From the NCBI GenBank assembly GCA_964525555.1, contig CAZGHN010000006.1:74805-138804 (forward strand): a stretch of 64,000 bases of DNA, in the 5' to 3' direction. A program made the position numbers and the translations under genes. The notes under the pieces were generated by a model. The model did not search any database. It saw only the letters and a list, made by a program, of their open reading frames with translations, and was not told the origin of the DNA. Origin of the DNA: an uncultured bacterium (GTDB lineage Bacteria; Hydrothermota; UBA3072). Shown one piece after another: positions 6,493 through 62,686 of this stretch. Position 1 is the first letter of the stretch. Each line of letters starts with the position of its first letter.

Positions 6493-6520
6493 TTGACAAA
6501 TCGATTTATCTTTTTAATAT
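6493..6520 (+). promoter_or_regulatory. sigma70-like promoter TTGACA-N16-TAATAT for thi4
   Basis: TTGACA 6493-6498, TAATAT 6515-6520, RBS AAGGAGGG 6566-6573, ATG 6577. Confidence 0.5.
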
Positions 6521-6576
6521 CAATAAATTAAATATTTGATGAGTATATTCTTAAGTTTTAAGTCAAAGGAGGGTTA

Positions 6577-7368: not shown

Positions 7369-7449
7369 TTATGAATGTTGAATGTTAAATGTTGAATTCA
7401 AAACTCAAAATTCAAAATCCTAAATCCCAATTTGAAGGTTTAAAGCAGA

Positions 7450-11580: not shown

Positions 11581-11592
11581 AATGGAGAAAAA

Positions 11593-12583: not shown

Positions 12584-12721
12584 TTTGTACCTTTTGTTAG
12601 TTCAGAATTCTAAATTAATAATTCATTACTTTTTTTAAGTTTTTCATTCAAAATTCAAAACTCAAAATTCAAAATTGTCATAGTTCATAATTATTATCAT
12701 TTTTGGATTTCTCTATATACT

Positions 12722-22854: not shown

Positions 22855-25002
22855 TTACCTTATCCTTATTACTTTCTTTGAAATTTTAATGTTTCCTGAT
22901 TTTAGTATACCAAAGTACAATCCCGACCCGAGTTTATTGCCTGAATGGTCGCTTCCGTCCCACAAAATAATTGTTGGAGAAGAGCTATTATTTTCTAAGG
23001 AAAAGGATTTTACCAGCTGTCCGTTTACGTTATAAATGGAAAAAGCGGCATCTTTTATGCTATTGTTACCGGCTAGATAGAGAATAAATTCCGTTCTATT
23101 GCTGAAAGGATTAAGCGAGATATTGAAACTTAGAGGTATTGAGTTGTTTGTAGGGGTTTCTATACCTGCTTCTTCATCCTGAAGGACCCAGACTGTTCCA
23201 CCCTCGTGACACATTACGTAGATTTTGTTCGTTTGCGAATTTACTCCAACTTCCCAGGGGGCATCTCCGACTTCGATAGTCGTAATCACGGAATCTGTAT
23301 TTCCGTCAATTACACTGGTATTGTCATTATACTCATTTGCTGCAAAGATGTGGTTCGACTGTGGGTTTACACCTAGTCCTTTTGGCCAGTTTTCGACATC
23401 AATAGTGTCAATCACTAAGTTAGTAGCCCCATCGATTACATGGATACTATCGCATGCAACATATATTCTGTTTGTCTGTGGGTTTATGGCGATCCCTTCA
23501 GGCCAGCTGCCGACCGCAATAGTGTCAATCACGGAGTCAATAGCACCATCGATTGCAACAACACTGTGATTATCCGATTCTGTCACATATATCCGGTTTG
23601 TTTCCGGATTTATGCACATTCCTGATAGCCAGCTTCCAATTGCAGCTGTATCAATAACGGAGTTAGTTGTGCCGTCGAGTACGACAACCTTAGTATTATC
23701 TTCTATTACATATATCCGGTTTGTTTGCGGATTTACGGACATATCTGATATCCAGCTTCCAATTGCAATAGTATCGATCAAGGTGTTAGTAGTTCCGTTA
23801 ATAACGCTAACCTCGTTCTCAGTTCCTACATATATCCGGTTTGTTTCCGGATTCACGCAAACTTCTGACGTATAACCTCCGAGTTCAATGCTGGTAATCA
23901 TGGAGTTGGTAACTCCGTCAATTACGTTGACGCTGTAGCTTTCTCCAGTTGTTACATAAGTTCGGTTTGTTTGTGGATTTACGGCAATATCATTGGGTTG
24001 AACTCCAAGCACGATAGTAGTAATGAGGGTGTGGGTAGTTGCGTCAATCACACTGGCAGTGTGGTTCCAATAATTCGCCGTATATATACGGTTCGTTTTC
24101 AGATTTATAGCAAGCTCCCGCGGTTCGCCTCCAAGTGCGATGGTATCAATAAGTGAATCGAGTGTTACATCAAACACGGTAATAGCGTAGTTGTTTCTGT
24201 CTAAAGAGTAAAGATGGTTGGTTTGTGGGTCTAGACTTATACTGGATGGTCTATGTCCGACATCAATAGTGTCAATCACAGAGTCAGTCTCACCGTCAAT
24301 TACAAAAATGTTACTATAATCATAATTTGCAACATAGATTAGATTTTTTATAGTATCTACCTCAACTCCGAGAGGTCGGTTTCCAACATCAATAGTGTCA
24401 ATCACGGAATCTATAGTTCCGTCAATTACGTGAACATCTTCATCAGCCCAGTTCGTTACATATATGCGCCTGGTTTTTGGATTTGCATCGATTCCATTTG
24501 GCATATTTCCAACCGTAATAGTAGTGATCAAAGAGTTGGTATTGGCATCGATAACACTAACATTGTCGTCACCTTCATTTGCCGTATAGATGAGGTTATT
24601 CTTTGGGTCTATGCTAATTTTATCGGGAGAGTTTCCGATTGCAATAGAATCAATTATGGAGTCAGTTGTCCCATCAATCACATAAATATTGTCGGTGGCC
24701 GGATTTGTCGTGTAAATAAGGTTTGTTTCAGAATTCACTCCGATTTCCCTTGCTGCGTTTGCTAATTCAATAGAGGCAATGACAGAATTGGTTGTACCGT
24801 CGATCACGGAAACATTGTCTGTGAATAAATTTACCACATAGATACGGTTTGTCGCATCATTTACATCAATTGCTGTAGGGCGCAATCCGTTTCCCGATTC
24901 TGGGCGAAGGTATATTGTATCAATAACCGTAACCTGGCTGAACCCAATAATTGTGTAACAGAATATTATAACTGACAATGCGCCTTTTTTTGAAAAAAAC
25001 AT
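22855..25002 (-). CDS. YVTN-family beta-propeller repeat protein with T9SS-type C-terminal sorting domain
   Basis: Many ~43-aa repeats (N..IYV.N..sv.ViDg.T); signal peptide from ATG 25002 with RBS AAGGAG; C-terminal beta-sandwich tail. Confidence 0.7.
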   Translation of the reverse strand: MFFSKKGALSVIIFCYTIIGFSQVTVIDTIYLRPESGNGLRPTAIDVNDATNRIYVVNLFTDNVSVIDGTTNSVIASIELANAAREIGVNSETNLIYTTNPATDNIYVIDGTTDSIIDSIAIGNSPDKISIDPKNNLIYTANEGDDNVSVIDANTNSLITTITVGNMPNGIDANPKTRRIYVTNWADEDVHVIDGTIDSVIDTIDVGNRPLGVEVDTIKNLIYVANYDYSNIFVIDGETDSVIDTIDVGHRPSSISLDPQTNHLYSLDRNNYAITVFDVTLDSLIDTIALGGEPRELAINLKTNRIYTANYWNHTASVIDATTHTLITTIVLGVQPNDIAVNPQTNRTYVTTGESYSVNVIDGVTNSMITSIELGGYTSEVCVNPETNRIYVGTENEVSVINGTTNTLIDTIAIGSWISDMSVNPQTNRIYVIEDNTKVVVLDGTTNSVIDTAAIGSWLSGMCINPETNRIYVTESDNHSVVAIDGAIDSVIDTIAVGSWPEGIAINPQTNRIYVACDSIHVIDGATNLVIDTIDVENWPKGLGVNPQSNHIFAANEYNDNTSVIDGNTDSVITTIEVGDAPWEVGVNSQTNKIYVMCHEGGTVWVLQDEEAGIETPTNNSIPLSFNISLNPFSNRTEFILYLAGNNSIKDAAFSIYNVNGQLVKSFSLENNSSSPTIILWDGSDHSGNKLGSGLYFGILKSGNIKISKKVIRIR

Positions 25003-25127
25003 ATACTTCTCCTTATTTTTACAGACAAATATATTTTGTTTTCCTATTATGTCAACCATTTACTTATAAAAATATCAGTTTATTACTTATAAGGTATTTT
25101 TGTTGCAGAGAGAACACAGAGAATAGA

Positions 25128-26444: not shown

Positions 26445-26818
26445 TTAATAGCCTCCTTTTATTGTTACATAAGAAGTTTAAGCATTTTTGCTTATATGTC
26501 AAGGGTTTTTTTTAATATATGGTTAAAAATTTGCTAAAAGTCTTTTTTTATTTTTTAAACAAATTAGCTGTTTTTATGCAAATAAAACACAGAGCCAGCC
26601 TTTCTACGTGCCTTATTTTTTAGCCACAAAAGACACAGAGATTTTCTTTTATGTTTTTAAAGCTCAACGCACTACCTTGAATTAGCCGCAGATTTTCGCT
26701 TATAAATACGGGTTTCCCACCTACCCATTCTTTAATACTTTTTTGTTTTTAAATATTGAAATAAATTTTTTTAATCTGTGGGAATCCGTGGCTAATTTCG
26801 CCGGGGGTGGGGATGGGC

Positions 26819-28203: not shown

Positions 28204-28348
28204 ATAGGATTAGAAGCAGTGCAAGTCAGCAGTTCTGGGATTATGGATTAAGTGGTAAGTTAAAATTTAGTCCAAAGTCCAAGGTCCTAAGTCCAAAGTC
28301 TTGAGTCAAAACTAAATCCTAAATCCCAAATCAAAACCCCTAGTATTA
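28204..28348. repeat. ~145-bp interspersed element (family R1, subtype ii)
   Basis: Near-identical to 29061..29204; together they flank gene 28440..28970 as direct repeats. Confidence 0.75.
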
Positions 28349-28970: not shown

Positions 28971-29060
28971 ATAGTCCTCCTTTTTTATTAATGAGTGTAA
29001 TAAGGGGTACCGAGTCTGTCAAGATGGGTTTAATTCTCACACTGAGACACAGAGACCAAA

Positions 29061-29204
29061 ATAGGATTAGAAGCAGTGCAAGTCAGCAGTTCTGGGATTA
29101 TGGATTAAGTGGTAAGTTAAAATTTAGTCCAAAGTCCAAGGTCCTAAGTCCAAAGTCTTGAGTCAAAACTAAATCCTAAATCCCAAATCCAAACCCCTAG
29201 TATT
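29061..29204. repeat. ~145-bp interspersed element (family R1, subtype ii)
   Basis: See 28204..28348. Confidence 0.75.
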
Positions 29205-29365
29205 GCCACAAAGTACACAAATAAAACAAAGATTTTTTTGTTTTAATTCAGAATTCATAGTTCAAAATTATCATCGTCCTTAATCCTGGCTTAACTTCTT
29301 GCTTTTCTTCTAATTACAAAACATTCCCCCCTTGCTCAAAGATTCAAAAAGAATATACTATTTAT

Positions 29366-30592
29366 ATGGAAAAGCTGTCTAATTTCGAGTTTTTTCTTGC
29401 TAAACGTTATATACGAATTAAAAAAGGCGAAGGTTTTAGGTCTTTGATTACTCTTTTTGCTGCAGGAGGAATCTGTCTTGGAGTTGCAACTCTTTTGGTC
29501 GTTTTATCCGTAATGAATGGTATGCAATCCGATCTTAAGCATAAGGTTCTTGGAGCGAGCGCTCCTTTAACGGTTTTAACTATTAATCAGGAAAATATAA
29601 AAGATTGGGAAAAGATTGCGGGCGACTTAAAAGAAAAAATACCTGAGATTCAGAATGCTACGCCATATATTTTTGAGAAAGCTCTTCTCAGATATGATAA
29701 AAGAACCGATGGAGCTATAATAAGAGGAGTAGATCCTGTTTCTTTTGGACTTGTTTCTGATATACCTAAGAATATAGAAGTCGGTGAATTTGATCTTTCG
29801 GGTAAGAGAGTTGTTCTTGGAAATTATCTTGCCAATCGCTTGTGGGCTCATGTAGGGGATACCATAACAATTTCATCTCCTTTTACTTCTGCGCCGACTC
29901 CCTTTGGGTTCCTTTTGCCTGCGGATGATTATATTCTGTCCGGAATATTCGATATGGGCATGTATGAATATAATGCTACACTCGCTATTATATCAGTTGA
30001 TAATGCGAGAAGGCTTTTTGGTATGAATGGGGTTTCGGGTATAGATTTTACTGTTGATGACCCCTATAAGGCTCCGGAACTTTCGATTGATATCGTTGCG
30101 GAGCTTGGATATCCTTATCGGGTGATTAATTGGATGGAAAGGAATAGAACTCTTCTTAGGGCTTTAGAAATCGAGAAAAAAGTAATGTTTATAATATTAA
30201 CTTTAATAATAATTGTTGCTGCTTTTAATATTATTTCTTCTTTGGTTCTTATCGTTCTAGGTAGAATGCGCGAAATAGGTATACTTAAAGCGCTCGGTTC
30301 TTCTTCTTCTTCAATTACAAGAATATTTCTTGTAGATGGGCTTATCGTTGGAGGTGGTGGTGCCCTTTTTGGTGTTTTAGTCGCCTTGATACTATGTTTT
30401 CTTCTTGGCAGGTATAAGTTTATCGATTTGCCTTCCGATATATATTTTCTTACAAAATTGCCTGTGGAAATGCAGTTATTCGATTTTCTTTTGGTATTTT
30501 TTTCTGCCATAATTTTATCTTTATTGGCAGCTTTATACCCGGCAAAGAAAGCCGCCAAACTTGACCCTGTGGAGGCGATCAGAAATGAGTGA
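29366..30592 (+). CDS. lipoprotein-releasing ABC transporter permease, LolC/LolE family
   Basis: FtsX-like permease with N-terminal TM, periplasmic domain and C-terminal three-TM bundle; paired with LolD-like ATPase. Confidence 0.75.
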   Translation: MEKLSNFEFFLAKRYIRIKKGEGFRSLITLFAAGGICLGVATLLVVLSVMNGMQSDLKHKVLGASAPLTVLTINQENIKDWEKIAGDLKEKIPEIQNATPYIFEKALLRYDKRTDGAIIRGVDPVSFGLVSDIPKNIEVGEFDLSGKRVVLGNYLANRLWAHVGDTITISSPFTSAPTPFGFLLPADDYILSGIFDMGMYEYNATLAIISVDNARRLFGMNGVSGIDFTVDDPYKAPELSIDIVAELGYPYRVINWMERNRTLLRALEIEKKVMFIILTLIIIVAAFNIISSLVLIVLGRMREIGILKALGSSSSSITRIFLVDGLIVGGGGALFGVLVALILCFLLGRYKFIDLPSDIYFLTKLPVEMQLFDFLLVFFSAIILSLLAALYPAKKAAKLDPVEAIRNE

Positions 30593-31271
30593 GATTATAA
30601 TATCTCTAAAAGACGTAAGTAAAGGTTTTCTTTCCGGAGCCGAAGAAATATCTGTTCTAAAAAGTGTAAATTTGGAAGTATGTAGAGGAGATTTTATAAC
30701 AATAAGCGGGCCATCGGGTTCAGGTAAGAGTACGCTTCTTCATATTTTGGGAGGACTTTTGCATCCTGATGAAGGAAATGTTTTACTTGAAGGTAAATCT
30801 TTGTATGATTATAAGGATAGAACACTTGCAAATATAAGAAATGAGAAGATAGGATTTATTTTTCAGTTTCATCACCTTCTCCTCGATTTTACAGTTGTTG
30901 AAAATTTGGCTATACCTCTTTTAATAAAAGGGGTAACTTTTAAGGAAGCTTACAAACAAGCAGAAAATTTACTTCTTCGCGTTGATCTTTCTTCCAGGAT
31001 GTATGCGAAACCTAGGACGCTATCAGGTGGAGAGAGGCAGCGAGTAGCGGTTCTTCGAGCTATTATAAACAATCCTTTGCTTTTACTTGCGGATGAGCCT
31101 ACTGGTGATTTGGATATGGCACATGCGGATGTGGTTTTAGATATGTTGACTCAAATCCATAAGGATAAAGGCATGACAGTTATACTTGTTAGTCATAATC
31201 AAAGGGTTGCAAAAATGGGACAAAAAACTTATAATTTACTTAAAGGGAAATTGAAAAAGAATGAAGTGTGA
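30585..31271 (+). CDS. lolD: lipoprotein-releasing ABC transporter ATP-binding protein
   Basis: Walker A GPSGSGKST, ABC signature LSGGERQRV, Walker B LLLADEPTGDLD; ATG 30585 overlaps permease stop. Confidence 0.8.
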   Translation: MSEIIISLKDVSKGFLSGAEEISVLKSVNLEVCRGDFITISGPSGSGKSTLLHILGGLLHPDEGNVLLEGKSLYDYKDRTLANIRNEKIGFIFQFHHLLLDFTVVENLAIPLLIKGVTFKEAYKQAENLLLRVDLSSRMYAKPRTLSGGERQRVAVLRAIINNPLLLLADEPTGDLDMAHADVVLDMLTQIHKDKGMTVILVSHNQRVAKMGQKTYNLLKGKLKKNEV

Positions 31272-31728
31272 TTTATGCGGAGCTAATGTAGCAAAATATA
31301 AATATTACGAAGTGGACTCTGATAAAGTTCGGGAAATAAACATTTGTGAACAGTGTGCCAGGGAAAAGGGAGTTGACGTTAAAAATAAAGATGATGTTAC
31401 GGAGATTAAAGACAAGGTGTGTCCAACTTGCGGATTGACTTTCTTTGAATATAAAAATTCTGGAAAGTTGGGATGTGTCGATTGCTATAAAGTTTTTTAT
31501 GATCAGGTTAAAACTTATCTGAAAGAGTTTCAATTGGGTGTTAATCACAAAGGTAAAGAACCAGTCAGAAATACAAAAGTCCTTTCTGTTAAAAAAGAAA
31601 TTTTGGAAATGAAGAAACAATTAGAAGATTATGTTGAAAGCGAGAAATTCGAAGAAGCGGTAAAGTTAAGAGATCAGATTGAAGAAAGAAAAGAAGAGCT
31701 TAAAACTATAAGGGGCAAAAATGATTGA
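31261..31728 (+). CDS. mcsA: McsA-like zinc-finger/UVR-domain protein
   Basis: Paired CxxC motifs (CDLCG...CEQC; CPTCG...CVDC) and C-terminal UVR-like helix; upstream of mcsB. Confidence 0.65.
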   Translation: MKCDLCGANVAKYKYYEVDSDKVREINICEQCAREKGVDVKNKDDVTEIKDKVCPTCGLTFFEYKNSGKLGCVDCYKVFYDQVKTYLKEFQLGVNHKGKEPVRNTKVLSVKKEILEMKKQLEDYVESEKFEEAVKLRDQIEERKEELKTIRGKND

Positions 31729-32761
31729 TTCTCTTGTTACTCGTTTCCCTGCCTGGCTTAAAAGAATTGGGCCTTATTCCGAGATGATACTGTTTTCCAA
31801 AATTTCTTTATATCGTAATCTTGGAGGATATAAGTTTAACAGTAAGACAACCGAAAAGGAAAAGGAAGAAATACTAAATTTCCTCTTTGAAGGTATATCT
31901 ACCCTTTCTTATTTTGAGAATTTTATTACTTTGAAAGATTTGAAAGAAAATGAAAAGGATTTTTTTATAGAAAGGAATTTTATAAAAAGAGAGGAGTCTA
32001 ATAAATTCGGGCAACTTGGTTTGGTTATAAATGATTCTCAAAACAGTGTACTTGTATTGAATTCAGACGAGCATCTTGAAATTTCTTCGGTGTTTTCTGA
32101 ATTGTCAATCAAAGAAGCTTATAATCAATGTGATGGTTTAGACGATGAACTTAACGAAGAATTTAGTTTTGCTTATGATAATGAATTAGGTTTTTTGACT
32201 TCATCAACCGATAAAGTCGGGACAGGCATGAAAATTTCCACCGTAGTTCATCTGCCGGCGCTTGTCATTACTGGTAAATTTGTGGATGTTATTGACGATC
32301 TTGAAGATTCTCTTTTTTCAATAGAGGGAGTTTTTAACATAGGTGAAAACGTGGAAGGGAGTTATTTTAAGATAAGCAACAAATTTACTCTGGGTGTCTC
32401 AGAAGAGGAAATACTAAAATTGTTTGAGAACAAGATTAAAGCTATAATTAAAGATGAAGTTGATAGCAGAGAGTATTTAACTCAGAAAGTCGGATATGAG
32501 ACTGAAGACAAAATTTGGAGATCTTATGGTATTCTTAAGAATGCAAGAATTTTATCGGTTACCGATTTTCTTAATTTGACATCGGCTGTAAGGCTCGGGA
32601 CTAGTTTAGGCATTATAAGAGATATTAGTATTGTGAATTTGAACGAATGGCTTTTTCAGGGCCTTCCCGGACACTTAAGGGTTCTAAATGAAGATGTTAG
32701 CAATGAAAAAGAAGAGAATATTCTTAGAGCCAAACTTATAAGAAATTATTTGGGAGGATAA
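31721..32761 (+). CDS. mcsB: protein-arginine kinase (ATP:guanido phosphotransferase)
   Basis: Phosphagen-kinase motifs DEHLEI and VGTGMKISTVVHLP. Confidence 0.75.
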   Translation: MIDSLVTRFPAWLKRIGPYSEMILFSKISLYRNLGGYKFNSKTTEKEKEEILNFLFEGISTLSYFENFITLKDLKENEKDFFIERNFIKREESNKFGQLGLVINDSQNSVLVLNSDEHLEISSVFSELSIKEAYNQCDGLDDELNEEFSFAYDNELGFLTSSTDKVGTGMKISTVVHLPALVITGKFVDVIDDLEDSLFSIEGVFNIGENVEGSYFKISNKFTLGVSEEEILKLFENKIKAIIKDEVDSREYLTQKVGYETEDKIWRSYGILKNARILSVTDFLNLTSAVRLGTSLGIIRDISIVNLNEWLFQGLPGHLRVLNEDVSNEKEENILRAKLIRNYLGG

Positions 32762-32765
32762 GAAT

Positions 32766-35216
32766 ATGTTTGGAGATGAAAAGTTTACGAAGAAATTGAT
32801 AGATGTGGTAAAATTAGCGAAAGACTTAGCTCAGGAATTCGGAGTAAAAGAAGTAACACCGGTTATTCTTTTACTTGCGATATTGAAACACGGAAACAAT
32901 ATTGCGATTACCGTTATCGAAGAAGTTGGAGTAGATATTGAATTGCTTGAAAATCGTGTTTTAAGAATTGTTAGCGGAAGCGGTGAGGTTTTAATTGCAG
33001 AGCAGCCAATGGGTTTGTCAGAGGATTCCCTTAATATTCTCGAACAAGCGAAAGAAGAGGCTATGATGCTTGGCAGGCAGATAATAGGTACAGAACACCT
33101 TCTTCTTGCGTTGCTTAAGGCTAGGGAAGAGGCATTTATAGAAGTGTTAAAGCCAGAAGAATTGGATTACTATTTGGCTAAACAAATGCTCCTTGATCTT
33201 TTTGATAAGGAAAGAATAAGCGATAAAAATAAAGAAAAGCCAAAATCCTCTGTTGATAGGGCGCTGGAATTTTATACGAGAGATCTTACCGAGCTTGCCA
33301 GAAAGGGAAAAATTGACCCTATCATTGGCAGGAAGGGCGAGATGGAACGGGTTATACAGACCTTATGCAGGAGAAAAAAGAATAATCCGGTCCTCGTCGG
33401 CGAGCCGGGTGTAGGAAAAACCGCTATTGTCGAAGGACTTGCTCAGAGAATTGTCTCCGGTTCCATACCTAAGATGTTACAGGGTAAGAAGATACTCTCT
33501 ATGGATCTCGCTTCAGTCATTGCCGGTACAAAATATCGTGGTCAATTTGAAAAGAGATTGAAACAAATTTTAGAATCTTTGAAAGATTCTGAAAACATTC
33601 TTTTTATCGATGAGATGCATACAATTGTTGGGGCGGGTGCAGCTGAGGGAGCCATAGATGCTTCTAATATGTTGAAGCCAATTCTTGCAAGAGGTGAGAT
33701 ACAGACTATTGGAGCTACTACAACTGAGGAATACAGGAAGTATATTGAGAAGGATGGCGCTCTGGAAAGAAGATTGCAGATGATTCTTATTGACCCTCCG
33801 ACTATAGATGAGACAATAGATATACTGGATGGTATTAAGCGCAAATATGAAGATTTTCATAAGGTTACTTATCCAGGTGAGGTTATTAAATCCGCAGTAA
33901 AGCTTTCCTGTCAGTATATAACAGACAGAAATCTTCCTGATAAAGCTATTGATGTTTTGGATGAGACGGGAGCTAAAGTGAGGTTAAGGGAGACAAAGGT
34001 TCCGGAAGAGATAGTAAAACTGGAGGCAGAACTCAGAGACGTAAAGGAAGAACTTATTAGGGTTAGGGAAGAGGGGAAATATGAAGTTGCGATTGAGTTA
34101 CGTGACAGAAGGGATGATATTGAAAAGAAATTAGAGGAAAGTCTGGAAGATTGGGGTAGATACGAGGGACTCAAACAGGTTAATGTCACCGAAGATGATA
34201 TAAGAGAAGTAATTTCTCTTTGGACTGGAATTCCTCTTAAGCGTCTCAGAGAAGAAGAAACAGAACGGCTTCTTTCTATGGAAGATGAAATTAAAAAAAG
34301 ACTTGTCGGACAGGATGAAGCGATCAGAGTTGTTTCTAAAGCAATCAGGAGAAGTAGGGCTGGTTTACGCGATTTAAGAAGGCCCTTAGGTGCTTTTCTA
34401 TTTCTTGGTCCTACGGGAGTGGGAAAAACCGAATTGGCTAAGCAGCTTGCCAAATTCCTTTTTAGTACAGAAGAAGCGCTTGTTAGAATAGATATGAGTG
34501 AATATATGGAGAGGTTTAATGTCTCTAAATTGATAGGAGCTCCTCCTGGATATGTAGGGTATGATGAAGGGGGTGTTTTAACTGAAGCTGTTAGAAGAAG
34601 ACCTTATTCTGTAATTCTTTTGGATGAGATAGAAAAATCTCATCCGGATGTCTATAACATTCTACTTCAGGTTTTTGATGAGGGTATGCTTACTGACGCT
34701 TATGGTAGAAAAGTTTCTTTTAAGAATACTGTTATAATTATGACATCGAATATAGGTACAAAAGAAATAATGCGCGGGGCGCATGTTGGCTTTAAAAAAC
34801 CTGATAAAAATGTTAAATACAAGGAGATGAAAGAATATCTTCTTGAAGAAATTAAAGAAAAATTCAATCCTGAATTTCTAAATAGGATTGATGAGAGTAT
34901 TGTTTTTCGTTCTCTTGATAAAGATATAATGTCTTCAATAGTTGATATATTTTTCAACGAAATAAGGGAAAGAGTTGAGGAAAAAGGTTTTGAAATTTCC
35001 CTTACGGATGAAGCAAAAGAATTTCTTATTGAAAAAGGTTTTGATCCCGAGTATGGGGCCAGGCCTTTAAAAAGAATCCTGCAAAGAAGTTTAGAAGACA
35101 AATTAGCAGAAGGGTTCTTAAAGGGAAAATGGGAAAAAGGAAATAAAATTGTTGTTTCAAGAGAGGAAAATGATTTAATTTTCTTCTCATCCCGTTCTGT
35201 AGCAGAAGTCATGTAA
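32766..35216 (+). CDS. clpC: ATP-dependent Clp protease ATP-binding subunit ClpC
   Basis: Clp_N repeats, two AAA+ modules ([15 protein letters not shown]; [12 protein letters not shown]), UVR linker. Confidence 0.85.
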
Positions 35217-35222
35217 TTTTAT

Positions 35223-36005
35223 ATGGGGAAAAGCATCTCAATCGTTAACCAGAAAGGTGGTGTAGGTAAAACAACTACTGCAGTTAATCTAGCCGCAGCA
35301 CTTGCTCTATATAATCAACGCTCTCTCATAATTGATATGGACCCACAGGCAAATGCTACTAGTGGGTTGGGTTTTACAGGTGTAACCCCAACTATTTATG
35401 ATGTCCTCGTGAAGGGAAGAAATCCGCAAAGTGTTATAAAAAAGACAGATGTCAAAAATCTTGATATTATTTCCTCGGATATTTCTCTTGTCGGAGCAGA
35501 GGTTGAACTTGTAGATGTCAGAGGAAGGGAAATGCAGCTAAAACGAAAGATTATGCCTCTAAAGAGGTATTATGATTTTATTTTAATTGATTCTCCGCCT
35601 TCACTTGGTTTGCTAACAGTAAATGCTCTTGTAAGCGCAGATTCTGTTTTGATCCCAATCCAGGCAGAATTTTATGCAATGGAAGGCTTAAGTAAACTTT
35701 TAAATACCGTAAGGAGTATTCAGCGCGAGTTGAATTCAAGGCTGACTATTGAGGGTGTACTTCTTACACTATTCGATACAAGATTGAATCTTGCTCATGA
35801 TGTTACTGATGAAGTTTGTAAATATTTTGGTGATAAAGTGTATGAGGTTATAATTCCCAGGAATGTTAAATTGGCGGAAGCTCCAAGTTATGGAAAACAC
35901 ATCTTTGATTATGATCTAAAATCCAGAGGGGCTGATGTTTATAGAAGATTAGCAGAAGAAGTTATGAGGAGAAATGGCAAGACGGGCGCTTGGCAAAGGA
36001 TTTGA
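35223..36005 (+). CDS. parA: chromosome partitioning ATPase ParA/Soj
   Basis: Deviant Walker A KGGVGKTTTAVNLA. Confidence 0.85.
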   Translation: MGKSISIVNQKGGVGKTTTAVNLAAALALYNQRSLIIDMDPQANATSGLGFTGVTPTIYDVLVKGRNPQSVIKKTDVKNLDIISSDISLVGAEVELVDVRGREMQLKRKIMPLKRYYDFILIDSPPSLGLLTVNALVSADSVLIPIQAEFYAMEGLSKLLNTVRSIQRELNSRLTIEGVLLTLFDTRLNLAHDVTDEVCKYFGDKVYEVIIPRNVKLAEAPSYGKHIFDYDLKSRGADVYRRLAEEVMRRNGKTGAWQRI

Positions 36006-36783
36006 TGCTCTTATTCCTACTGTAGAGGAAGATAAAATCCCGGTAGGGGAAATATTTCACTCTCCCTTACAGCCCAGAAGAAAAATAAATGAAGAGGATT
36101 TAAAGGATCTCATAGCTTCCATAAAACAGAACGGAATTTTGCAGCCTGTTTTACTGAGGAGAGTTGAAGACGGCAGGTGTGAGTTGGTTTACGGACACCG
36201 GCGTTTTGAGGCAGCAAAAAAGGCTGGGCTAAAAGAAATCCCTGCTGTTTTTAGAAGACTCTCTGATAGAGAAGTATTGGAGATTGCAATAATTGAGAAT
36301 GTACAAAGAGAAGATTTAAATCCTATTGAAGAAGCTGATGCTTATTATAACTTGAATGTAGAATTTAATCTTACGCAGGAGGAAATTGCCGAAAGAGTTG
36401 GAAAAGCAAGAACTACAATAACCAATAAGATGAGATTGCTAACGCTACCCGAAGAGGTTAAGAAAGCTTTATACGATAATAAGATAACTGAAGGACATGC
36501 AAGAGCACTTCTTGCTTTAAAAGATAAGAATAGAATTTTAAAGGAACTGAATAATATAATAAAAGGTGAGAAGACAGTAAGAGAAGCAGAGAGGGCATCC
36601 GGAGTAAAAAAGAAAAGAATAGAGTTGCCTTCTAAATATAAAGAATTAAGAGAAGAGCTTATGCATTTATTTAATACTGATGTTAAAATAAAAACAGGTA
36701 AAAAAAAGAATCAATTAATAATAGAGTTTTATTCTGATGAAGATTTGGAGAGAATATACAATTTAATAAAGGGCAAAAAATAA
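35974..36783 (+). CDS. parB: chromosome partitioning protein ParB/Spo0J
   Basis: ParB box GHRRFEAAK and HTH region. Confidence 0.85.
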   Translation: MARRALGKGFDALIPTVEEDKIPVGEIFHSPLQPRRKINEEDLKDLIASIKQNGILQPVLLRRVEDGRCELVYGHRRFEAAKKAGLKEIPAVFRRLSDREVLEIAIIENVQREDLNPIEEADAYYNLNVEFNLTQEEIAERVGKARTTITNKMRLLTLPEEVKKALYDNKITEGHARALLALKDKNRILKELNNIIKGEKTVREAERASGVKKKRIELPSKYKELREELMHLFNTDVKIKTGKKKNQLIIEFYSDEDLERIYNLIKGKK

Positions 36784-36913
36784 AAATCAAAAAAGATCTT
36801 AAAATACATTAACCACAGAGAACACAGAGGAATTAATTGTGATAAAAAAGAGAGAAACACCGGGAACACAGAGAAAAAACAAAAAGTTAATTAGTAATAT
36901 TATGATAGGTTAG

Positions 36914-37693
36914 GTGATGGGTATGAGGAAGTATACGATACAATTTATTCCTGAAAATGGTGATGTTAAAGAAATTCATCTATCTGGGAAAGTTATTGTT
37001 GTGCTTGGTATTGTTTCTTTTTTGATAATAGCTACCATTCTATATTTTTCTATAAATATTGGAAGATTGGCAGTAAATAAAATGGAATATAGTTTATTGA
37101 AGAATAGAGTTGCTAATCTTGAAAATAGAGGTCTGGAAATAGAGAAATTGAACAATAGAATAAAAAAATTCTATGATATTGCCGATAAATTGAATAAAGC
37201 ACTCGGTCTTGAAATTTCTCTTGAGGAGTTTTATAAGGCGGAGGAGGAGAAATTTACCTCAATAGAATCTTATAAGACAGATGAAATCGGCTCGTTAAAG
37301 GATGAAGCAGAGCGTTTACAGGATTTTGTGCCTAACATACTACCCACAGAAGAAGGATGGATAAGTAAAAGATTTTCTACGGACCATAAAGCAATAGATA
37401 TATCTTTAAAAGAAGGTACATCTATTTATTCTACTATGGAGGGTTCTGTTACTTTTGTGGGTGATAGAGAATATCTTGGATTAACGTTAGAAATAAATAA
37501 TGATGAGGGTTTTGCAATAAGGTTAAGTCATCTAAGTGAAGTTTTAGTTAAAAATGGACAAGAGGTCAAGAAAAACCAGCTGGTTGCTCTTTCTGGAAAT
37601 ACCGGAAGAAGTGATGCTCCTCATCTACACTATGGTTTACAAATGCAAGGGAAATGGGTTGACCCAATTAATTATTTACTTATTAGGAGGTAA
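36914..37693 (+). CDS. M23/LytM-family peptidase with N-terminal TM and coiled coil
   Basis: Catalytic region ...DAPHLHYGLQMQGKWVDP. Confidence 0.75.
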   Translation: MMGMRKYTIQFIPENGDVKEIHLSGKVIVVLGIVSFLIIATILYFSINIGRLAVNKMEYSLLKNRVANLENRGLEIEKLNNRIKKFYDIADKLNKALGLEISLEEFYKAEEEKFTSIESYKTDEIGSLKDEAERLQDFVPNILPTEEGWISKRFSTDHKAIDISLKEGTSIYSTMEGSVTFVGDREYLGLTLEINNDEGFAIRLSHLSEVLVKNGQEVKKNQLVALSGNTGRSDAPHLHYGLQMQGKWVDPINYLLIRR

Positions 37694-37695
37694 AT

Positions 37696-38058
37696 ATGCG
37701 ACAAGATGCAATAATGAATGTTTTCCATAAGGGTTCCACTGTTGATGGTAAAATAAGAATAAACGGATCTATACGAATAGATGGAAAACTAAAGGGAGAA
37801 GTTGAAGCGACAGATGCTGTCATTATAGGTGAAACAGGGATTATTGAAGGAGATATAAAAGCAAAGGAAGCAAATATTTCCGGTAAGTGCACAGGTCGTA
37901 TTGTGATTGAAAACTGTGTTCTTCTTCATGCTTCAGCTGAAATAAATGGGGATATCAAGTGTAAGAAATTAGTGGTCGATGAAGGTGTTACTATTGACGG
38001 TAATATAACTATGAGAGATAAGAGTAGGAATGTCCCGGAAGAAAAAGGAAAAATATAA
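37696..38058 (+). CDS. bactofilin (polymer-forming cytoskeletal protein)
   Basis: Beta-helical repeat pattern G.I.G.I...G typical of bactofilins. Confidence 0.7.
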   Translation: MRQDAIMNVFHKGSTVDGKIRINGSIRIDGKLKGEVEATDAVIIGETGIIEGDIKAKEANISGKCTGRIVIENCVLLHASAEINGDIKCKKLVVDEGVTIDGNITMRDKSRNVPEEKGKI

Positions 38059-38743
38059 TATTCGTCCGGTAGAAATTAAAGTTAACTATCTAAAGCTGGT
38101 TCCTGCTTCGGTATTGATAGAACAGGGGAATACTATTGTTCTAGTTTCTTCCACTCTTACTGATTCCGTGCCTACTTTTTTGAAAGGTTTGGGGCAAGGG
38201 TGGTTAACAGCTCAATATGGTATGCTGCCGAAAAGCTCTAACTCGAGATTAAATAGAGAAAGAAGCGGATTATCCGGAAGAAGTTATGAAATTCAACGAT
38301 TAATTGGAAGAGCGTTAAGACAGGCATTTAATTTGGAAGTCCTGGGAGAAAAGACTATTATTCTTGATTGTGATGTAATTCAGGCGGATGGAGGAACAAG
38401 AACAGCATCGATAACGGCTGGAATGGTGTCGGTTTATGAGCTTTTCCGTCAAATGGTTGAAATGAAGGAAATCAAAAAGATACCTATTAAACGTTGGATT
38501 GCAGCTATTTCGGGCGGTATAGTTAACGGTAAAATATTGCTGGACCTTAATTTCGAAGAAGATTCGAATGCGGATGCCGATATTAATCTTGCTATGGATG
38601 AAGACGGTAGAGTGATTGAGATTCAGGGAACTGCAGAAAGAAGTTCTTTTAGTTCAGAGCAACTTAATGAATTAATTGAGGTTGGTAAACAAGGAATAAA
38701 GGAACTCATTGCCAAGCAAAAAGAATCGCTCGGCTTAAAATAA
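38030..38743 (+). CDS. rph: ribonuclease PH
   Basis: N-terminal region aligns with RNase PH; DGGTRTASIT motif. Confidence 0.85.
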   Translation: MSRKKKEKYNIRPVEIKVNYLKLVPASVLIEQGNTIVLVSSTLTDSVPTFLKGLGQGWLTAQYGMLPKSSNSRLNRERSGLSGRSYEIQRLIGRALRQAFNLEVLGEKTIILDCDVIQADGGTRTASITAGMVSVYELFRQMVEMKEIKKIPIKRWIAAISGGIVNGKILLDLNFEEDSNADADINLAMDEDGRVIEIQGTAERSSFSSEQLNELIEVGKQGIKELIAKQKESLGLK

Positions 38744-38794: not shown

Positions 38795-39838
38795 TTGGTA
38801 TCTCTAATGGAAAATAAAAGAGAAAATAATGGCATTGAAAATGTTTGGCGGGAAGATGTTAGGAGTGAGAATATTAGACTCGATACATATTTATCTAAAA
38901 GCAGTCTTCCATTTAGTAGAAGTAAGATAAAACAAAAAATTAAGAATAGGGAAATTCTTGTAAACGGGGAGCCCTCCAAACCCTCATATAGTGTTAAAAG
39001 GGGAGATATTATAGAAGCTGTATATGAACCCCAGGCTTCTTTTGAGATAAAGCCTCAGGAAATACCAATTTCCATAATATATGAAGATCAGGATATAATT
39101 GTTTTAAATAAGCAAAAAGACATGGTAGTGCACCCTGCTAAAGGAAACTCTGACGGTACACTTGTAAATGCTCTTCTTTACCATTGCTCTGACCTTTCGG
39201 AAGGTTCCGGTCTTGAAAGACCTGGCGTTATACATAGACTTGATGAAGATACGACCGGTGTTATAGTTTTCGCTAAAAGCCAGAGAGTGCACGCGAAAAT
39301 AGCGACCCAGTTTCAAAGGCGAGAAGTCGAAAAAATTTATCTTGCCGTAGTCTGGGGGACTCCTCCGATGAAAGAAGGAGAAATAAATTCACCTATAGGT
39401 AGAAGTTCTTTTGATAGAAAATTGATGTCGGTCACGCCTCTTAACTCCAGGGATTCCATTACTCGTTTTAAGGTTCTTCATTCGTATGGGTTTGCATCGA
39501 TTCTTAAAGTACAGCTTGAGACTGGAAGGACACATCAAATTAGGGTTCACCTTTCTCATTACGGATATCCCGTGATCGGAGATGCGGATTATGGAGGTAG
39601 AGATAAAAAAATTTTAAGAAGAATAGGACTTGACTATCGGTCCGCTTTTGATAAGATAATGGGAGTTATAGATAGACAGGCACTTCACGCTGCATCGATT
39701 GAATTTATGCATCCGGTGGAGAAAAAGAAAGTACGCTTTACCGCGCCGGTTCATGAAGATATGAAGAAGCTGATTGAATTTCTGAATGAAAATAATGCCA
39801 CTAAGACACGAAGACACAAAGGAGTATTGAATGATTAA
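38795..39838 (+). CDS. rluD: RluA/RluD-family 23S rRNA pseudouridine synthase
   Basis: S4 domain followed by HRLDEDTTGVIVFAK catalytic motif. Confidence 0.8.
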   Translation: MVSLMENKRENNGIENVWREDVRSENIRLDTYLSKSSLPFSRSKIKQKIKNREILVNGEPSKPSYSVKRGDIIEAVYEPQASFEIKPQEIPISIIYEDQDIIVLNKQKDMVVHPAKGNSDGTLVNALLYHCSDLSEGSGLERPGVIHRLDEDTTGVIVFAKSQRVHAKIATQFQRREVEKIYLAVVWGTPPMKEGEINSPIGRSSFDRKLMSVTPLNSRDSITRFKVLHSYGFASILKVQLETGRTHQIRVHLSHYGYPVIGDADYGGRDKKILRRIGLDYRSAFDKIMGVIDRQALHAASIEFMHPVEKKKVRFTAPVHEDMKKLIEFLNENNATKTRRHKGVLND

Positions 39839-39966: not shown

Positions 39967-42123
39967 ATGGATTTAATAATAGTTGAATCTCCGGCAAAAG
40001 CCAGAACAATTACCAATTATCTAAAGAAAACTAAGGTAATGGCAACAATGGGTCATATTAAGGATCTTCCGAAGAGTAAGATAGGTATAGATTTTGATAA
40101 TGGGTTCAATCCGGATTATAAAATAATAAAAGGGAAAGGAAAAATTGTAAAAGAGATAGTAAAAGCTAGTAAAAAGAGCGATAGGGTTTTTATAGCAACC
40201 GATCCGGATAGAGAAGGGGAGGCTATTGCCTATCATCTCCAGGAAGAACTGCCGGTTGCGCCCAAAAGAGTTATGTTCTATGAGATGACAAAAAACGGTA
40301 TAAATAAAGGCATCAGCGAACCTTGTGATGTCGATATGAATAAGGTTTTTTCTCAGCGTACAAGGAGAATTCTGGACAGATTAGTTGGGTATAAAATCAG
40401 TCCTTTGCTGTGGAAAGCTATTCGAAGGGGATTGTCTGCCGGGAGAGTTCAAAGTGTGGTTCTCCGGCTTATTTGCGAGAGGGAAGAGGAAATTGATAAT
40501 TTCGTGCCTGAGGATTACTGGGTATTCAAAGGTCTTTTTGTTCATCCCCACGGTGAATTCGAGGCAAATCTTGAAAAAATCGATGGGAAAAAGGCAAATA
40601 TCGCAACTAAAAAGGATGCTGAAAAAATTAAAAAAGCTTTGAAAAATGCTAGTTTTTCAGTTAAAGAATTCAATAAAAGTGACGTTAAGCAGTCTCCTTT
40701 TCCGCCTTTGATAACGAGTACTCTGCAAAGAGGTGCTTCCAACAATTTCGGGTTTCCTATAAAAAAGACAATGTATGTTGCGCAGCGCCTGTATGAGGGT
40801 ATTGCGCTTCCTGAGGGAACAACAGGTCTTATTACTTATATGAGAACAGATTCTTTTAGAATTTCCAAAGATGCCGAAGGAAGTATGCGAAAATTTATTA
40901 AGGATAATTATGGAGATAATTATCTGCCGGCAAAGCCCAATGTTTATAAATCAAAGAAAGGTGCGCAGGAAGCTCATGAGGCAATTAGACCGACAGATAT
41001 AACCAGGACACCGGAATCTATTAAAGAACATCTAAAGCCCGAGGAATATAAGCTCTATAAACTTATATGGGAAAGAGCGCTGGCCAGTCAGTTCGAAGAT
41101 GCTGTTTTTGATTCCAGAAAAGTTACGGTTGAAACTTCCTCTTATGAGTTCAAAGGTTCTTCAAAGAATTTGAAATTCGATGGATTTTATAAAATTCTTG
41201 CTCCTCCTAAGGAGCAAAATATTATACCCCTGATGGAAGTGGGTGATTCCGTAAGCCTTAAAAAACTTGATGACGAGAAAAAAACTACCGAACCTCCTGC
41301 AAGGTATTCCGAAGCTACAATGGTTAGAGAAATGGAAAAACGGGGGATAGGACGTCCAAGTACGTATTCTCCGACCATATCGACTCTTTTGGTAAGAACT
41401 TACATTAAAAAGATAAAAGGTTTTCTTGTGCCTCAGGAAATAGGTAAGATTGTAAATAAAGTTTTGGTTTCTAATTTTGGTTCAACGATTATAAATTGTG
41501 ATTTTACTTCTTCTATGGAAGAAGATTTGGATAAAATCGAGGAAGGTAAGGAAGACTGGCGTAAATCCGTCGAAGTTTTTTATGATTCTTTCAAGAATGA
41601 TCTTGAGGCAGTCGAGGAAAAAATTCCCGAGATTAGAGACAGTATAAGCGAAAAGACAGATAGAAAGTGTCCTAAATGCGGGAAAAATTTGATAGTAAAA
41701 TGGGGCCGTTACGGTAAATTTCTTGCTTGTCCGGGTTATCCGGAGGATTGCGAGGGCTATACTGAACCGCATGAAGATGACATTCTTAATGAGAAATGTC
41801 CTAAATGCGGGGGAAAGGTAATCCTACGTCAGGGGAGGTTCGGGAGGTTTAAAGCCTGCGGGAATTATCCCGAATGTGATTGGAGTGCTTCGGTTTCGAC
41901 CGGCGTAAAATGTCCCAAGTGCGGTAAAGGCGAATTTATTGAAAGAAAATCTAAAAAGGGGAGAGTTTTCTATCCTTGTTCTACCGAAGATTGCGATAAT
42001 GTTTTGTGGGATAAACCAGTTGGGGAAGAGTGCCCAAAATGTAATGCGCCTTTTATGGTTGAAAAGATGAACGCACGCCAGGATTATATTTACTGCCTTG
42101 AGTGTAAACATAAGGAAATGTAA
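39967..42123 (+). CDS. topA: DNA topoisomerase I
   Basis: Toprim start MDLIIVESPAKARTI; C-terminal repeated zinc ribbons CPKCG. Confidence 0.9.
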   Translation: MDLIIVESPAKARTITNYLKKTKVMATMGHIKDLPKSKIGIDFDNGFNPDYKIIKGKGKIVKEIVKASKKSDRVFIATDPDREGEAIAYHLQEELPVAPKRVMFYEMTKNGINKGISEPCDVDMNKVFSQRTRRILDRLVGYKISPLLWKAIRRGLSAGRVQSVVLRLICEREEEIDNFVPEDYWVFKGLFVHPHGEFEANLEKIDGKKANIATKKDAEKIKKALKNASFSVKEFNKSDVKQSPFPPLITSTLQRGASNNFGFPIKKTMYVAQRLYEGIALPEGTTGLITYMRTDSFRISKDAEGSMRKFIKDNYGDNYLPAKPNVYKSKKGAQEAHEAIRPTDITRTPESIKEHLKPEEYKLYKLIWERALASQFEDAVFDSRKVTVETSSYEFKGSSKNLKFDGFYKILAPPKEQNIIPLMEVGDSVSLKKLDDEKKTTEPPARYSEATMVREMEKRGIGRPSTYSPTISTLLVRTYIKKIKGFLVPQEIGKIVNKVLVSNFGSTIINCDFTSSMEEDLDKIEEGKEDWRKSVEVFYDSFKNDLEAVEEKIPEIRDSISEKTDRKCPKCGKNLIVKWGRYGKFLACPGYPEDCEGYTEPHEDDILNEKCPKCGGKVILRQGRFGRFKACGNYPECDWSASVSTGVKCPKCGKGEFIERKSKKGRVFYPCSTEDCDNVLWDKPVGEECPKCNAPFMVEKMNARQDYIYCLECKHKEM

Positions 42124-42140
42124 ACTGCTGAAAGCAGTTT
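42122..42140. terminator. hairpin between convergent topA and S8 peptidase genes (weak terminator candidate)
   Basis: AAACTGC-tgaaa-GCAGTTT stem-loop overlapping the topA stop; no clear T-tract. Confidence 0.3.
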
Positions 42141-42405
42141 ACAGTATATCAGTGAATTCGTGAATCAGTAAATTAGTATACTTATTTTACTAATAACTAA
42201 GTAATGTTGCCTTTGTGTGAGAAATTAGGTTTTAGGTCTTTGGTTTTGGGTTTTAGTAAAGAAGAAAATAAAATCTCTACATGTTCTACATGTTAAAAAT
42301 TAAATGGGGTGTGTTGTGTTTTAAATAAACACACATCATTCTTTTTTTCAGTGTGCTCTGAGTTTTTTTCTTTGTGCTCTCCGTGTCTTTGTGTGAGAAT
42401 CTATT

Positions 42406-45043: not shown

Positions 45044-45180
45044 ACAAAAAACATTTAACACAGAGTACACAGAGAAAAACAAAAAACACAGAGATCACAG
45101 AGAAAAAACTATGTTTCGTGTTTTTAAAACCCAACCCGCCTCAGTTAATTTTTCACATGTAGAACATGTAGGTATTGTAG
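45044..45180. repeat. ~137-bp interspersed element (family R2): four CACAGAG boxes plus conserved block with CATGT-AGA-ACATG palindrome
   Basis: Over 90 percent identical to 60998..61134; both sit just upstream of promoters of secreted-protein genes. Confidence 0.8.
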
Positions 45181-62683: not shown

Positions 62684-62686
62684 TTA

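Follow-up and report, generated by a model that had tools for sequence, protein, structure and literature searches.

Phospho-arginine (pArg) tagging for degradation in bacteria is commonly defined by the enzyme McsB, and nearly all work on McsB has been done in Gram-positive organisms. Its catalytic elements are defined as C167 and the NEEDH motif (PMC11046695) and its pArg receptor as R337/D338/R341/S285 (PMC8370763). In Bacillus subtilis a single arginine-to-lysine change at any one of R29, R31, R34, R125, R176, R207 or R337 abolishes kinase activity in vitro, and C167S is a kinase-inactive allele in vivo, yet one that supports a kinase-independent adaptor role (PMC7235348). Among diderm bacteria, Chlamydia has ClpC plus homologues of McsA and McsB (PMC10128030), and McsAB homologues have been noted in some Proteobacteria (PMC11046695). 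Here we describe a 64-kb stretch of contig CAZGHN010000006.1 (the window) from an uncultured bacterium placed in candidate phylum WOR-3 by its nearest relatives, in which an mcsA-mcsB-clpC module lies between lipoprotein-release and partition genes and the McsB homologue is a predicted pseudokinase. The features of the gene string are as follows (lengths in nucleotides, nt, or amino acids, aa).

29326..29359, + strand: predicted promoter P1, with a C-run and TTGCTC (29332-29337), a 16-nt spacer and TATACT (29354-29359), 6 nt before the lolCE ATG
29366..30592, + strand: lolCE-type lipoprotein-release ABC permease, 408 aa, with MacB_PCD and FtsX domains; best NCBIfam model TIGR02212 (lolCE)
30585..31271, + strand: lolD-type ABC ATPase, 228 aa from the ATG at 30585, with an ABC_tran domain; best NCBIfam model TIGR02211 (LolD)
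31207..31235, + strand: candidate internal promoter P2, TTGCAA, 17 nt, TATAAT, 25 nt upstream of the mcsA ATG
31261..31728, + strand: mcsA, 155 aa, with two four-cysteine zinc fingers, an L3 loop and a UVR coiled coil
31721..32761, + strand: mcsB-like gene for a predicted pseudokinase, 346 aa, with the McsB fold and an altered active site and pArg receptor
32766..35216, + strand: clpC, 816 aa, class I AAA+ unfoldase with Clp_N, two AAA modules and ClpB_D2-small
35223..36005, + strand: parA, 260 aa, AAA_31/CbiA, with the deviant Walker A motif KGGVGKTT
35974..36783, + strand: parB, 269 aa, with ParB_N, HTH_ParB and ParB_C domains

The McsB homologue carries the domains PF00217 (ATP-gua_Ptrans) and PF27454, matches the McsB structure 6fh1 by phmmer (E 1e-51), and retains both the phosphagen-kinase-like catalytic domain and the C-terminal dimerisation domain. 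It scores below the cut-offs of the McsB models NF002194 (277.4 bits, cut-off 385) and NF053707 (230.6, cut-off 500). It was aligned with McsB of B. subtilis and of G. stearothermophilus, as taken from Protein Data Bank matches, and the residue numbering was checked on the published C167 and S166 (PMC11046695) and on R190/R194 and R337/D338/R341/S285 (PMC8370763). In B. subtilis numbering the substitutions are R29K, R31S, E120S, E121D, R125E, C167S, N170K, R176K, R207E, E212I, S285V, R337E and D338N, while R34 and R341 are retained. Five motifs compare as follows.

SSRIRLARN in B. subtilis, FSKISLYRN in the window protein
NEEDHIRIQ in B. subtilis, NSDEHLEIS in the window protein
TSCPTNVGTGLR in B. 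subtilis, TSSTDKVGTGMK in the window protein
VRGIYGEGS in B. subtilis, IEGVFNIGE in the window protein
ERDIRRA in B. subtilis, EENILRA in the window protein

The catalytic loop TSCPTNVGTG reads TSSTDKVGTG, and NEEDH reads NSDEH, with E120 replaced by S and E121 by D. The active-site arginine positions hold K29, S31, R34, E125, K176 and E207, leaving R34 as the sole survivor, and the pArg receptor reads E-N-I-L-R with S285 changed to V and R341 alone kept. One of the seven individually essential arginines is therefore present (R34), R29, R31, R125, R176, R207 and R337 having been replaced. Ten core residues were scored across homologues (R29, R31, E120, E121, R125, C167, N170, R176, R207 and E212), and the window protein has 0/10. 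The 120 best homologue clusters divide sharply: 75 have all ten residues, the 45 closest to the window protein have none to two, and no cluster falls between. Position 167 is C in 75/75 of the canonical homologues; in the 45 clade proteins it is S in 43 and T in two. Other replacements are likewise fixed or nearly so within the clade (S31 in 40/45, K or R at 170 in 45/45, E337 in 45/45); H123 and the GTG loop are still present.

An AlphaFold2 model made from the clade alignment has a pLDDT of 85.5 and a Foldseek TM-score of 0.90 to McsB 6fh1. The ratio of non-synonymous to synonymous substitution rates (dN/dS) of mcsB is 0.06-0.09 (about 0.07), comparable to those of lolCE (0.06-0.07) and mcsA (0.07-0.08). 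By the model and by these ratios the McsB homologue is not decaying; it is predicted to be folded and is under purifying selection. Because its defining catalytic residues are missing, we name it McsB-like, a predicted pseudokinase; the residue pattern indicates that kinase activity has probably been lost. The initial annotation had called the genes an arginine-kinase system, a name that does not suit an McsB homologue lacking the catalytic cysteine, both NEEDH glutamates, six of the seven essential arginines and the arginine of the pArg receptor. A search for pArg in the proteome would most likely find nothing, unless another part of the genome encodes a second kinase. Several sources use the label 'protein arginine kinase' in the degenerate clade, JGI for many of its members; on the residue evidence the label is unlikely to be right for clusters P0001-P0045, 45 in all.

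A second WOR-3 lineage (L020:2167-3243 and L022:9956-11032) has the same lolCE-lolD-mcsA-mcsB-clpC order and an McsB that is degenerate in other ways, with the motifs FTKVQLRRN, GDQDHVKLI, TASPHF(A/T)GTG and GIRPVYETGG. Loss of the kinase motifs would therefore either predate the window clade or have occurred twice. The McsB kinase motifs are fully canonical at another WOR-3 locus (L024) and at the Fibrobacterota loci, which argues that catalysis was lost within WOR-3 while the gene kept its place in the operon.

Beside the predicted pseudokinase, McsA is intact and ClpC is ClpP-competent as judged by sequence. McsA has both sets of zinc cysteines (Cys3/6/29/32 and Cys54/57/72/75), which are conserved in all clade loci, and the L3 loop HKGKEP (HxGKxP) and UVR coiled coil are kept in the window protein and the clade. 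It matches B. subtilis McsA (8wtb_B) by phmmer with an E value of 6e-22. The zinc domains, the L3 loop, the UVR region and the position immediately upstream of mcsB all identify it as McsA; its NCBIfam score (103.7 bits, cut-off 210) is low partly because the linker between Z1 and Z2 is short. The McsA residues that contact McsB, H124/K127/R131, have retained equivalents in H96/K99/R103, as do D146/D147 on the McsB side of the interface.

ClpC has the double Clp_N repeat, Walker A and B motifs in both AAA modules, a short UVR-like M-domain and a ClpP-docking loop (HVGFKK, of the (I/L/V)GF type), and its dN/dS is 0.03-0.05. Of the 13 clade ClpC sequences examined, 12 have a V/LGF loop. In the ClpC N-terminal domain (NTD), in which E32, E106 and T7 are defined as pArg-site residues (PMC12583610), the equivalents of the pArg1 residues T7 and E106 are retained, while E32 is V in the window subclade, T81 is S and K85 is L. 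The pairing of T81 with E32 as pArg2 is suggested by the symmetry of the two Clp_N repeats. The ClpC proteins of three canonical-McsB loci (L021, L026 and L027) have GTEH in both repeats and FTP(R/K)AKK, and in that of the canonical WOR-3 locus L024 the first repeat reads VTAEH. GTEH is generic to Clp_N repeats, so its retention is no proof of pArg binding by itself. Loss of the K85-D356 anchor was considered as a marker of derepression and dropped, since position 356 also differs among canonical-McsB loci, being Y in L024, S in L027 and D in L026. Pfam annotation of 50 ORFs (open reading frames) in the window found no ctsR, clpP or ywlE-type phosphatase gene.

The initial annotation had described positions 29366-36783 as seven genes with overlapping junctions or junctions of less than 10 nt, and this was borne out. 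The ORF listing gives seven + strand ORFs there (lolCE, lolD, mcsA, mcsB, clpC, parA and parB), and the proposed identities are right at family level, the best Pfam and NCBIfam families matching expectation for all seven. The NCBIfam scores of lolCE (TIGR02212, 338.5 bits, cut-off 362.45), LolD (TIGR02211, 253.9, cut-off 307.75), McsA and McsB are under the curated equivalog cut-offs, so these are divergent members of their families. The locus has a single permease gene, of the homodimeric LolCE type, adjoining that for the predicted LolD ATPase; lipoprotein release is a sequence prediction.

lolCE and lolD overlap by 8 nt as read from the sequence. lolD starts at the ATG at 30585, which is preceded by GGAGG, and not at the TTG at 30561, and an independent gene call on an identical 13-kb contig (L001) concurs; an identical contig of this length occurs in sample SRR14802572. 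There are further overlaps of 11 nt between lolD and mcsA and of 8 nt between mcsA and mcsB (ATGATTGA), gaps of 4 nt between mcsB and clpC and of 6 nt between clpC and parA, and an overlap of 32 nt between parA and parB, where the parB N-terminus MARRALGKGFDALIP is a typical ParB start. The junction lengths (-8, -11, -8, +4, +6 and -32) are near-unchanged in 14 related genomes and so are not due to chance. The earlier view of a tight string that is probably co-transcribed is supported. The string runs past 36783 on the same strand, with genes for an M23 peptidase and a bactofilin and then for RNase PH, a pseudouridine synthase and topoisomerase I.

An identical copy of the McsB homologue occurs in an NCBI contig, and its nearest named relatives belong to candidate division WOR-3. 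A scan of species-representative genomes, seeded with the clade-only McsB alignment, found 18 related loci, under labels that include WOR-3, Candidatus Stahlbacteria and TA06, and four more distant loci, the taxon names being the labels of metagenome-assembled genomes (MAGs). By these sequence relationships the host is a member of candidate phylum WOR-3 (Stahlbacteria-like). The sole WOR-3 strain in culture is a Gram-negative organism that has both an inner and an outer membrane (PMC12285271), and the initial suggestion of a diderm host is thus supported at phylum level.

tblastn searches with the window proteins showed the order lolCE-lolD-mcsA-mcsB-clpC-parA-parB-M23-bactofilin-rph-rluD-topA in 13/13 clade contigs that are long enough, and this 12-gene order is kept down to 48% McsB identity; a fourteenth contig (L012) stops after the M23 gene. 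The lolCE-lolD-mcsA-mcsB(-clpC) core is also present in other WOR-3 (L020, L022 and L024), in Fibrobacterota/Chitinivibrionales (L021 and L023) and in four further lineages (L026-L029). In these last four the core mostly has lysS upstream, and downstream it has bamA-skp-lpxD-fabZ/lpxC-lpxA, mlaE-mlaF-mlaD, selA or tusA-dsrEFH. Two of them have a canonical McsB with clpC followed directly by bamA-skp-lpxD-fabZ/lpxC-lpxA (L026:11585-17068) or by mlaE-mlaF-mlaD (L027:11501-13811), and there the mcs/clpC module sits among genes of outer-membrane biogenesis. A Planctomycete locus has mcsA-mcsB only; about 5 kb from this pair, at L025:1553-2623, a Sua5/YciO domain is fused to an LMWPc (YwlE family) domain, a possible pArg phosphatase candidate of that lineage.

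Metagenomes were scanned with a canonical diderm-type McsB, and the best 80 matches to this one query family, which are not taxonomically balanced, gave a similar picture. lolD and mcsA lie upstream on the same strand in 35 of the 44 loci with enough upstream sequence (directly adjacent in 24, with one inserted gene in 11), lysS-lolCE-lolD is present in 26/33, and clpC is downstream of mcsB in 43/53. One of the locus types is from Gemmatimonadales (83-88% identity to named proteins). The arrangement lysS-lolCE-lolD-mcsA-mcsB-clpC is the dominant one for diderm-type mcsB, and the lol-mcs-clpC link is ancestral and widespread in this region of the bacterial tree. Only the join to parAB-M23-bactofilin-rph-rluD-topA is clade-specific, and it is kept in every related locus that is long enough.

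Two parts of the initial annotation have to be revised in this light. It had presented the junction of lol and mcs genes as a fusion, but the lol-mcs link is ancestral and the parAB join alone belongs to the clade. It had also regarded McsAB/ClpC as unusual in a diderm; apart from the reports from Chlamydia (PMC10128030) and some Proteobacteria (PMC11046695), canonical mcsA-mcsB-clpC was found here in WOR-3, Fibrobacterota, Gemmatimonadota and further metagenomic lineages. A literature search for McsB together with LolD, largely in open-access papers, returned only an unrelated proteomics paper, and a search that covered few subscription papers found no account of a degenerate McsB clade.

Upstream of lolCE a block composed of CCCCCTTGC(T/C)C, 16 nt, TATACT, 6-7 nt and (A/G)TG is kept in 15/15 clade loci examined, and the intergenic DNA around it is unalignable among them. 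This block includes P1, which a consensus scan missed because its -35 element matches at just 3/6 positions. No Shine-Dalgarno sequence was found ahead of the lolCE ATG, and the geometry of P1 predicts a leaderless lolCE mRNA that would start at the predicted promoter. An array of AGTCCAA heptamers upstream of lolCE was considered as a CtsR-box analogue and rejected; other heptamer arrays fill many gaps and there is no ctsR in the window.

P2 lies within the last 65 nt of lolD and matches the consensus at 10/12 positions, and the 16 clade loci examined have both of its hexamers, save that in some the first reads TTGCAC. Synonymous sites of the lolD codons that cover it (203-221) have a conservation of 0.90-0.91 against a gene mean of 0.66, the top peak of the seven genes. 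As a candidate internal promoter for mcsA-mcsB-clpC it is suggestive only, because codon bias is AT-rich and one window of mcsB is just as high, both of which weaken the signal. High synonymous conservation of mcsB codons 322-334 was rejected as a regulatory element, since it coincides with the invariant EENILRA motif and with A/T-ending codons. Terminator-like sites are no commoner than in shuffled sequence and none is at any junction of the string. Independent promoters and terminators between the modules had been named beforehand as what would argue against a single operon; of these, a conserved promoter-like element lies inside the 3' end of lolD, which counts in part against one operon, and there are no terminators between the modules. 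A single operon is supported by the promoter block conserved ahead of lolCE, by junction lengths of -32 to +6 nt and by the absence of junction terminators; the promoter-like element inside lolD may provide mcsA-clpC with a start of its own.

The explanation we favour, and hold to be moderately probable, is that the string is a conserved WOR-3 housekeeping operon with a dead McsB, in which McsA and pseudo-McsB serve as a pArg-independent adaptor or regulator of ClpCP. The lolCE-lolD-mcsA-mcsB-clpC core would have been inherited from an arrangement common to the Fibrobacterota/Gemmatimonadota/WOR-3 neighbourhood, usually behind lysS, and in the window clade it would have been joined to parA-parB-M23 peptidase-bactofilin-rph-rluD-topA. 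Transcription is predicted to start at P1, with its -10 box 6 nt before the lolCE ATG and the first gene leaderless, and one transcript may run through the junctions, whose overlaps and very short gaps favour translational coupling; P2 could separately boost mcsA-mcsB-clpC. The McsB homologue would not act as an arginine kinase because the arginines that bind the ATP phosphates, the catalytic glutamates and cysteine, and the pArg receptor arginine are replaced. McsA and pseudo-McsB would instead associate without catalysis and bind ClpC together, as its adaptor or as a regulator of its activity, and targeting to ClpCP would be independent of pArg.

Several points weigh against this explanation. 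According to the original report, B. subtilis McsB had to be kinase-active and autophosphorylated to serve ClpC as an adaptor (cited in PMC7235348), so a pArg-independent adaptor is not the default expectation. Retention of T7 and E106 would be compatible with residual recognition of pArg by ClpC. A second, canonical McsB may be encoded elsewhere in the genome, of which the 64-kb window was examined, and several of the replacements in the McsB homologue are conserved, as they could be in a rewired active site. On the transcriptional side, co-transcription and the leaderless start are argued from conservation, and P2 lies in AT-rich coding sequence where TATAAT-like codon strings are common. 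Sigma-70 promoter-like matches are at chance level (46 found, 45.4 expected); the consensus scan for promoters and terminators is uninformative by itself because its counts equal the shuffled expectation.

A further explanation, possible if rather unlikely, is that the neighbourhood has no functional meaning, and that the genes share a transcript without functional connection because a small, gene-dense genome has packed its essential genes together and passed the order on by descent. The variety of downstream partners among lineages (bamA-skp-lpxD and following genes, mlaEFD, selA, tusA-dsrEFH or parAB), the presence of the unrelated housekeeping genes rph, rluD and topA, and the extra gene between lolD and mcsA in 11/35 loci would all fit such a view. 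It accounts less well for the lolD-mcsA link, which spans at least three named phyla in spite of changing flanks and of McsB proteins about 30-35% identical to the window protein; persistence at such divergence is more than neutral synteny predicts. Nor does it account for the repeated occurrence of the cluster among genes of envelope biogenesis. A functional tie of the module to lipoprotein export or outer-membrane biogenesis is suggested by gene order. We regard as doubtful the more specific proposal that the clade turned McsB into a dead subunit and that McsA-McsB/ClpCP, like its lol-wired active ancestors, would be dedicated to quality control of lipoprotein or outer-membrane precursors on the cytoplasmic side.

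It also seems unlikely that the McsB homologue has become a new enzyme or ligand sensor, with a remodelled pocket (K29, S31, S120, E122, H123, S167 and K/R170) whose new activity would regulate ClpC. In its favour, several of the replacements are near-invariant in the clade, H123 and the GTG loop persist, purifying selection is strong and the pocket-forming fold is preserved. However, the phosphate-binding positions vary in the clade (R125 to E, K or Q; R176 to V, I, E or K; R207 to G, E or D; E212 to I, T, V, M or D), and no new conserved motif was identified in it; variable nucleotide-phosphate positions are a signature of relaxed constraint and not of a new defined site. A working Firmicute-style pArg system, in which McsA-activated McsB would tag proteins for degradation by ClpC-ClpP and be co-expressed with lipoprotein export and partition genes, is very improbable, for although the best family matches are McsA, McsB and ClpC in the B. 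subtilis order, ClpC has counterparts of T7 and E106 at the main pArg1 site (PMC12583610) and sister lineages of the same gene order have a fully canonical McsB, the window protein has none of the ten core residues, six of the seven essential arginines replaced and the standard kinase-dead C167S change, R337 is E in 45/45 clade members, ClpC pArg2 is altered (E32V, T81S), neither ctsR nor a ywlE-type phosphatase gene is in the window, and McsB is under every NCBIfam equivalog cut-off.

The partition genes and those that follow them make up the rest of the conserved block. parA begins 6 nt past clpC with no obvious ribosome-binding site, a junction that is conserved in relatives. ParB has the N-terminal peptide LGKGFDALI and the arginine patch GHRRFEAA and scores 188.6 bits with TIGR00180, above the cut-off of 58.45. 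The features downstream are as follows.

36784..36916, no strand: intergenic gap of 133 nt with CACAGAGA-type short repeats (repeat matches 36813-36874)
36917-37693, + strand: M23 peptidase (Pfam Peptidase_M23)
37696-38058, + strand: bactofilin (Pfam Bactofilin)
38030-38743, + strand: RNase PH (RNase_PH; TIGR01966 over cut-off)
38807-39838, + strand: RluD-type pseudouridine synthase, from gene calls and Pfam on the identical contig L001
39967-42123, + strand: topoisomerase I, from gene calls and Pfam on L001; end of the conserved 12-gene block

The spacer between parB and the M23 gene is 9-51 nt in 12 of 15 relatives, and the 133-nt gap is a lineage-specific repeat expansion of this normally short spacer, enlarged because one repeat cluster fills it; no terminator-like hairpin was found in it. 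The order M23-bactofilin-RNase PH is conserved in each clade locus that is long enough, and synteny with rluD and topA is seen in L003-L019. The M23 (LytM-type) peptidase and bactofilin genes are 2 nt apart, and the peptidase has its best NCBIfam match in Pgp3, a helical-shape peptidase. Pairs of M23 peptidase and bactofilin, such as Csd1-CcmA in Helicobacter, are known to act in cell shape, and the pair here has the look of a module for cell shape or division that accompanies the partition genes.

No parS consensus within 2 mismatches was found in the window, and two 3-mismatch matches are far from parB. Cumulative GC skew peaks at about 42-44 kb, where the + strand genes (18-42 kb) meet the - strand genes (42-64 kb), with a hairpin at 42119-42143 at the meeting point, about 5 kb from parAB. 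The peak may reflect either a terminus-like convergence or plain coding-strand bias. parAB is normally near the origin. DnaA-box matches in the window are at chance level and form no cluster, and with no parS either the origin was not placed.

Repeats are spread over the intergenic gaps of the window, many of which are filled by heptamer tandems (AATTCAA, ATTCAAA, AGTCCAA and TTAGGTT) and clusters of the 9-mer CACAGAGAA. With up to one mismatch allowed, 29 copies of ACACAGAGA were counted where 9.7 +/- 3.1 would be expected; those exact copies that were compared with the ORF map are all between ORFs. The two sets of repeats are placed as follows.

437-474, 2023-2054, 7395-7425, 12646-12676, 28269-28311, 29126-29168, 42225-42256: intergenic repeats, first set
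25114, 26587-26641, 29039-29055, 36813-36874, 42378-42394, 45058-45103, 61011-61057: intergenic repeats, second set

Other parts of the window also carry recognisable genes. Positions 2889-7368 encode a metallo-beta-lactamase-fold protein, a ThiF(E1-like)+JAB fusion of 782 aa, Thi4 and then a thiamine-phosphate synthase, possibly a sulfur-carrier/JAB-processed thiazole pathway. At 11095-12171 a Roadblock/LC7 protein gene is followed after 12 nt by that of a small Arf/Ras-like GTPase, an MglB-MglA-like polarity pair. An NHL/beta-propeller gene (22855-25059), with a C-terminal domain of the FlgD_ig type, contains a 123-nt unit repeated 2.3 times (23578-23859). On the - strand, 55249-60846 encodes an RHS-repeat protein of 1865 aa beside small - strand ORFs (61254-63979) with no Pfam match, a region that is possibly a polymorphic toxin locus. 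Scans of the window with Rfam gathering thresholds and for tRNAs returned nothing.

An evolutionarily stable, natural kinase-dead McsB that is still accompanied by McsA and ClpC would offer a ready system for the debated kinase-independent adaptor function. In at least three phyla the diderm mcsA-mcsB-clpC module is tied to lolCE-lolD and often adjoins bamA/skp/lpx or mla genes, and the lol linkage suggests a connection between cytoplasmic proteolysis and lipoprotein export that is testable in cultivable Gemmatimonadota or Fibrobacterota. The locus also gives genome annotation a conserved predicted leaderless promoter for an uncultured phylum.

Compared with known ParABS loci that carry bactofilin/M23 modules, the window has the same deviant Walker A in ParA, the same ParB peptide, arginine patch and helix-turn-helix, and the M23-bactofilin genes next; it differs in having no parS within 2 mismatches in the 64 kb, and direct attachment to clpC is specific to the clade. 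In Chlamydia trachomatis mcsAB lies apart from clpC, a substrate tagged with pArg is degraded by ClpCP, and there is no sign of a degenerate kinase or of lol linkage. The proposed mode of action resembles that of MecA-type ClpC adaptors, whose stoichiometric binding to the ClpC NTD and M-domain relieves the resting state with no covalent tag (PMC12583610). There is no sequence or fold relationship to MecA, and binding of pseudo-McsB to ClpC is a proposal. The canonical lysS-lolCE-lolD-mcsA-mcsB-clpC clusters share the five-gene core, its order and its orientation with the window, and the canonical WOR-3 locus L024 shares the 11-nt overlap of lolD and mcsA, whereas the canonical clusters have an McsB with 10/10 catalytic residues, lysS upstream and no parAB downstream.

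The Firmicute ctsR-mcsA-mcsB-clpC operon, as in B. subtilis, has the same mcsA-mcsB-clpC order with overlapping or abutting genes, the same McsA zinc fingers and UVR region, the same two-domain McsB fold (TM-score 0.90 to 6fh1) and the same ClpC layout of NTD, M-domain, AAA modules and ClpP loop. In the window, however, lolCE-lolD takes the place of ctsR, the host is diderm, McsB is without C167, the NEEDH glutamates, R29/R31/R125/R176/R207 and the receptor residues R337/D338, and the ClpC NTD is without the E32 and K85 equivalents. The window module descends from the Firmicute one and would work like it, save for McsB catalysis. The closest parallel to its McsB is the engineered B. subtilis C167S protein, which has the identical change of the catalytic cysteine to serine and keeps a kinase-independent adaptor contribution to proteolysis (PMC7235348); the window protein has in addition about a dozen more substitutions in the active and receptor sites, maintained under selection across the clade.

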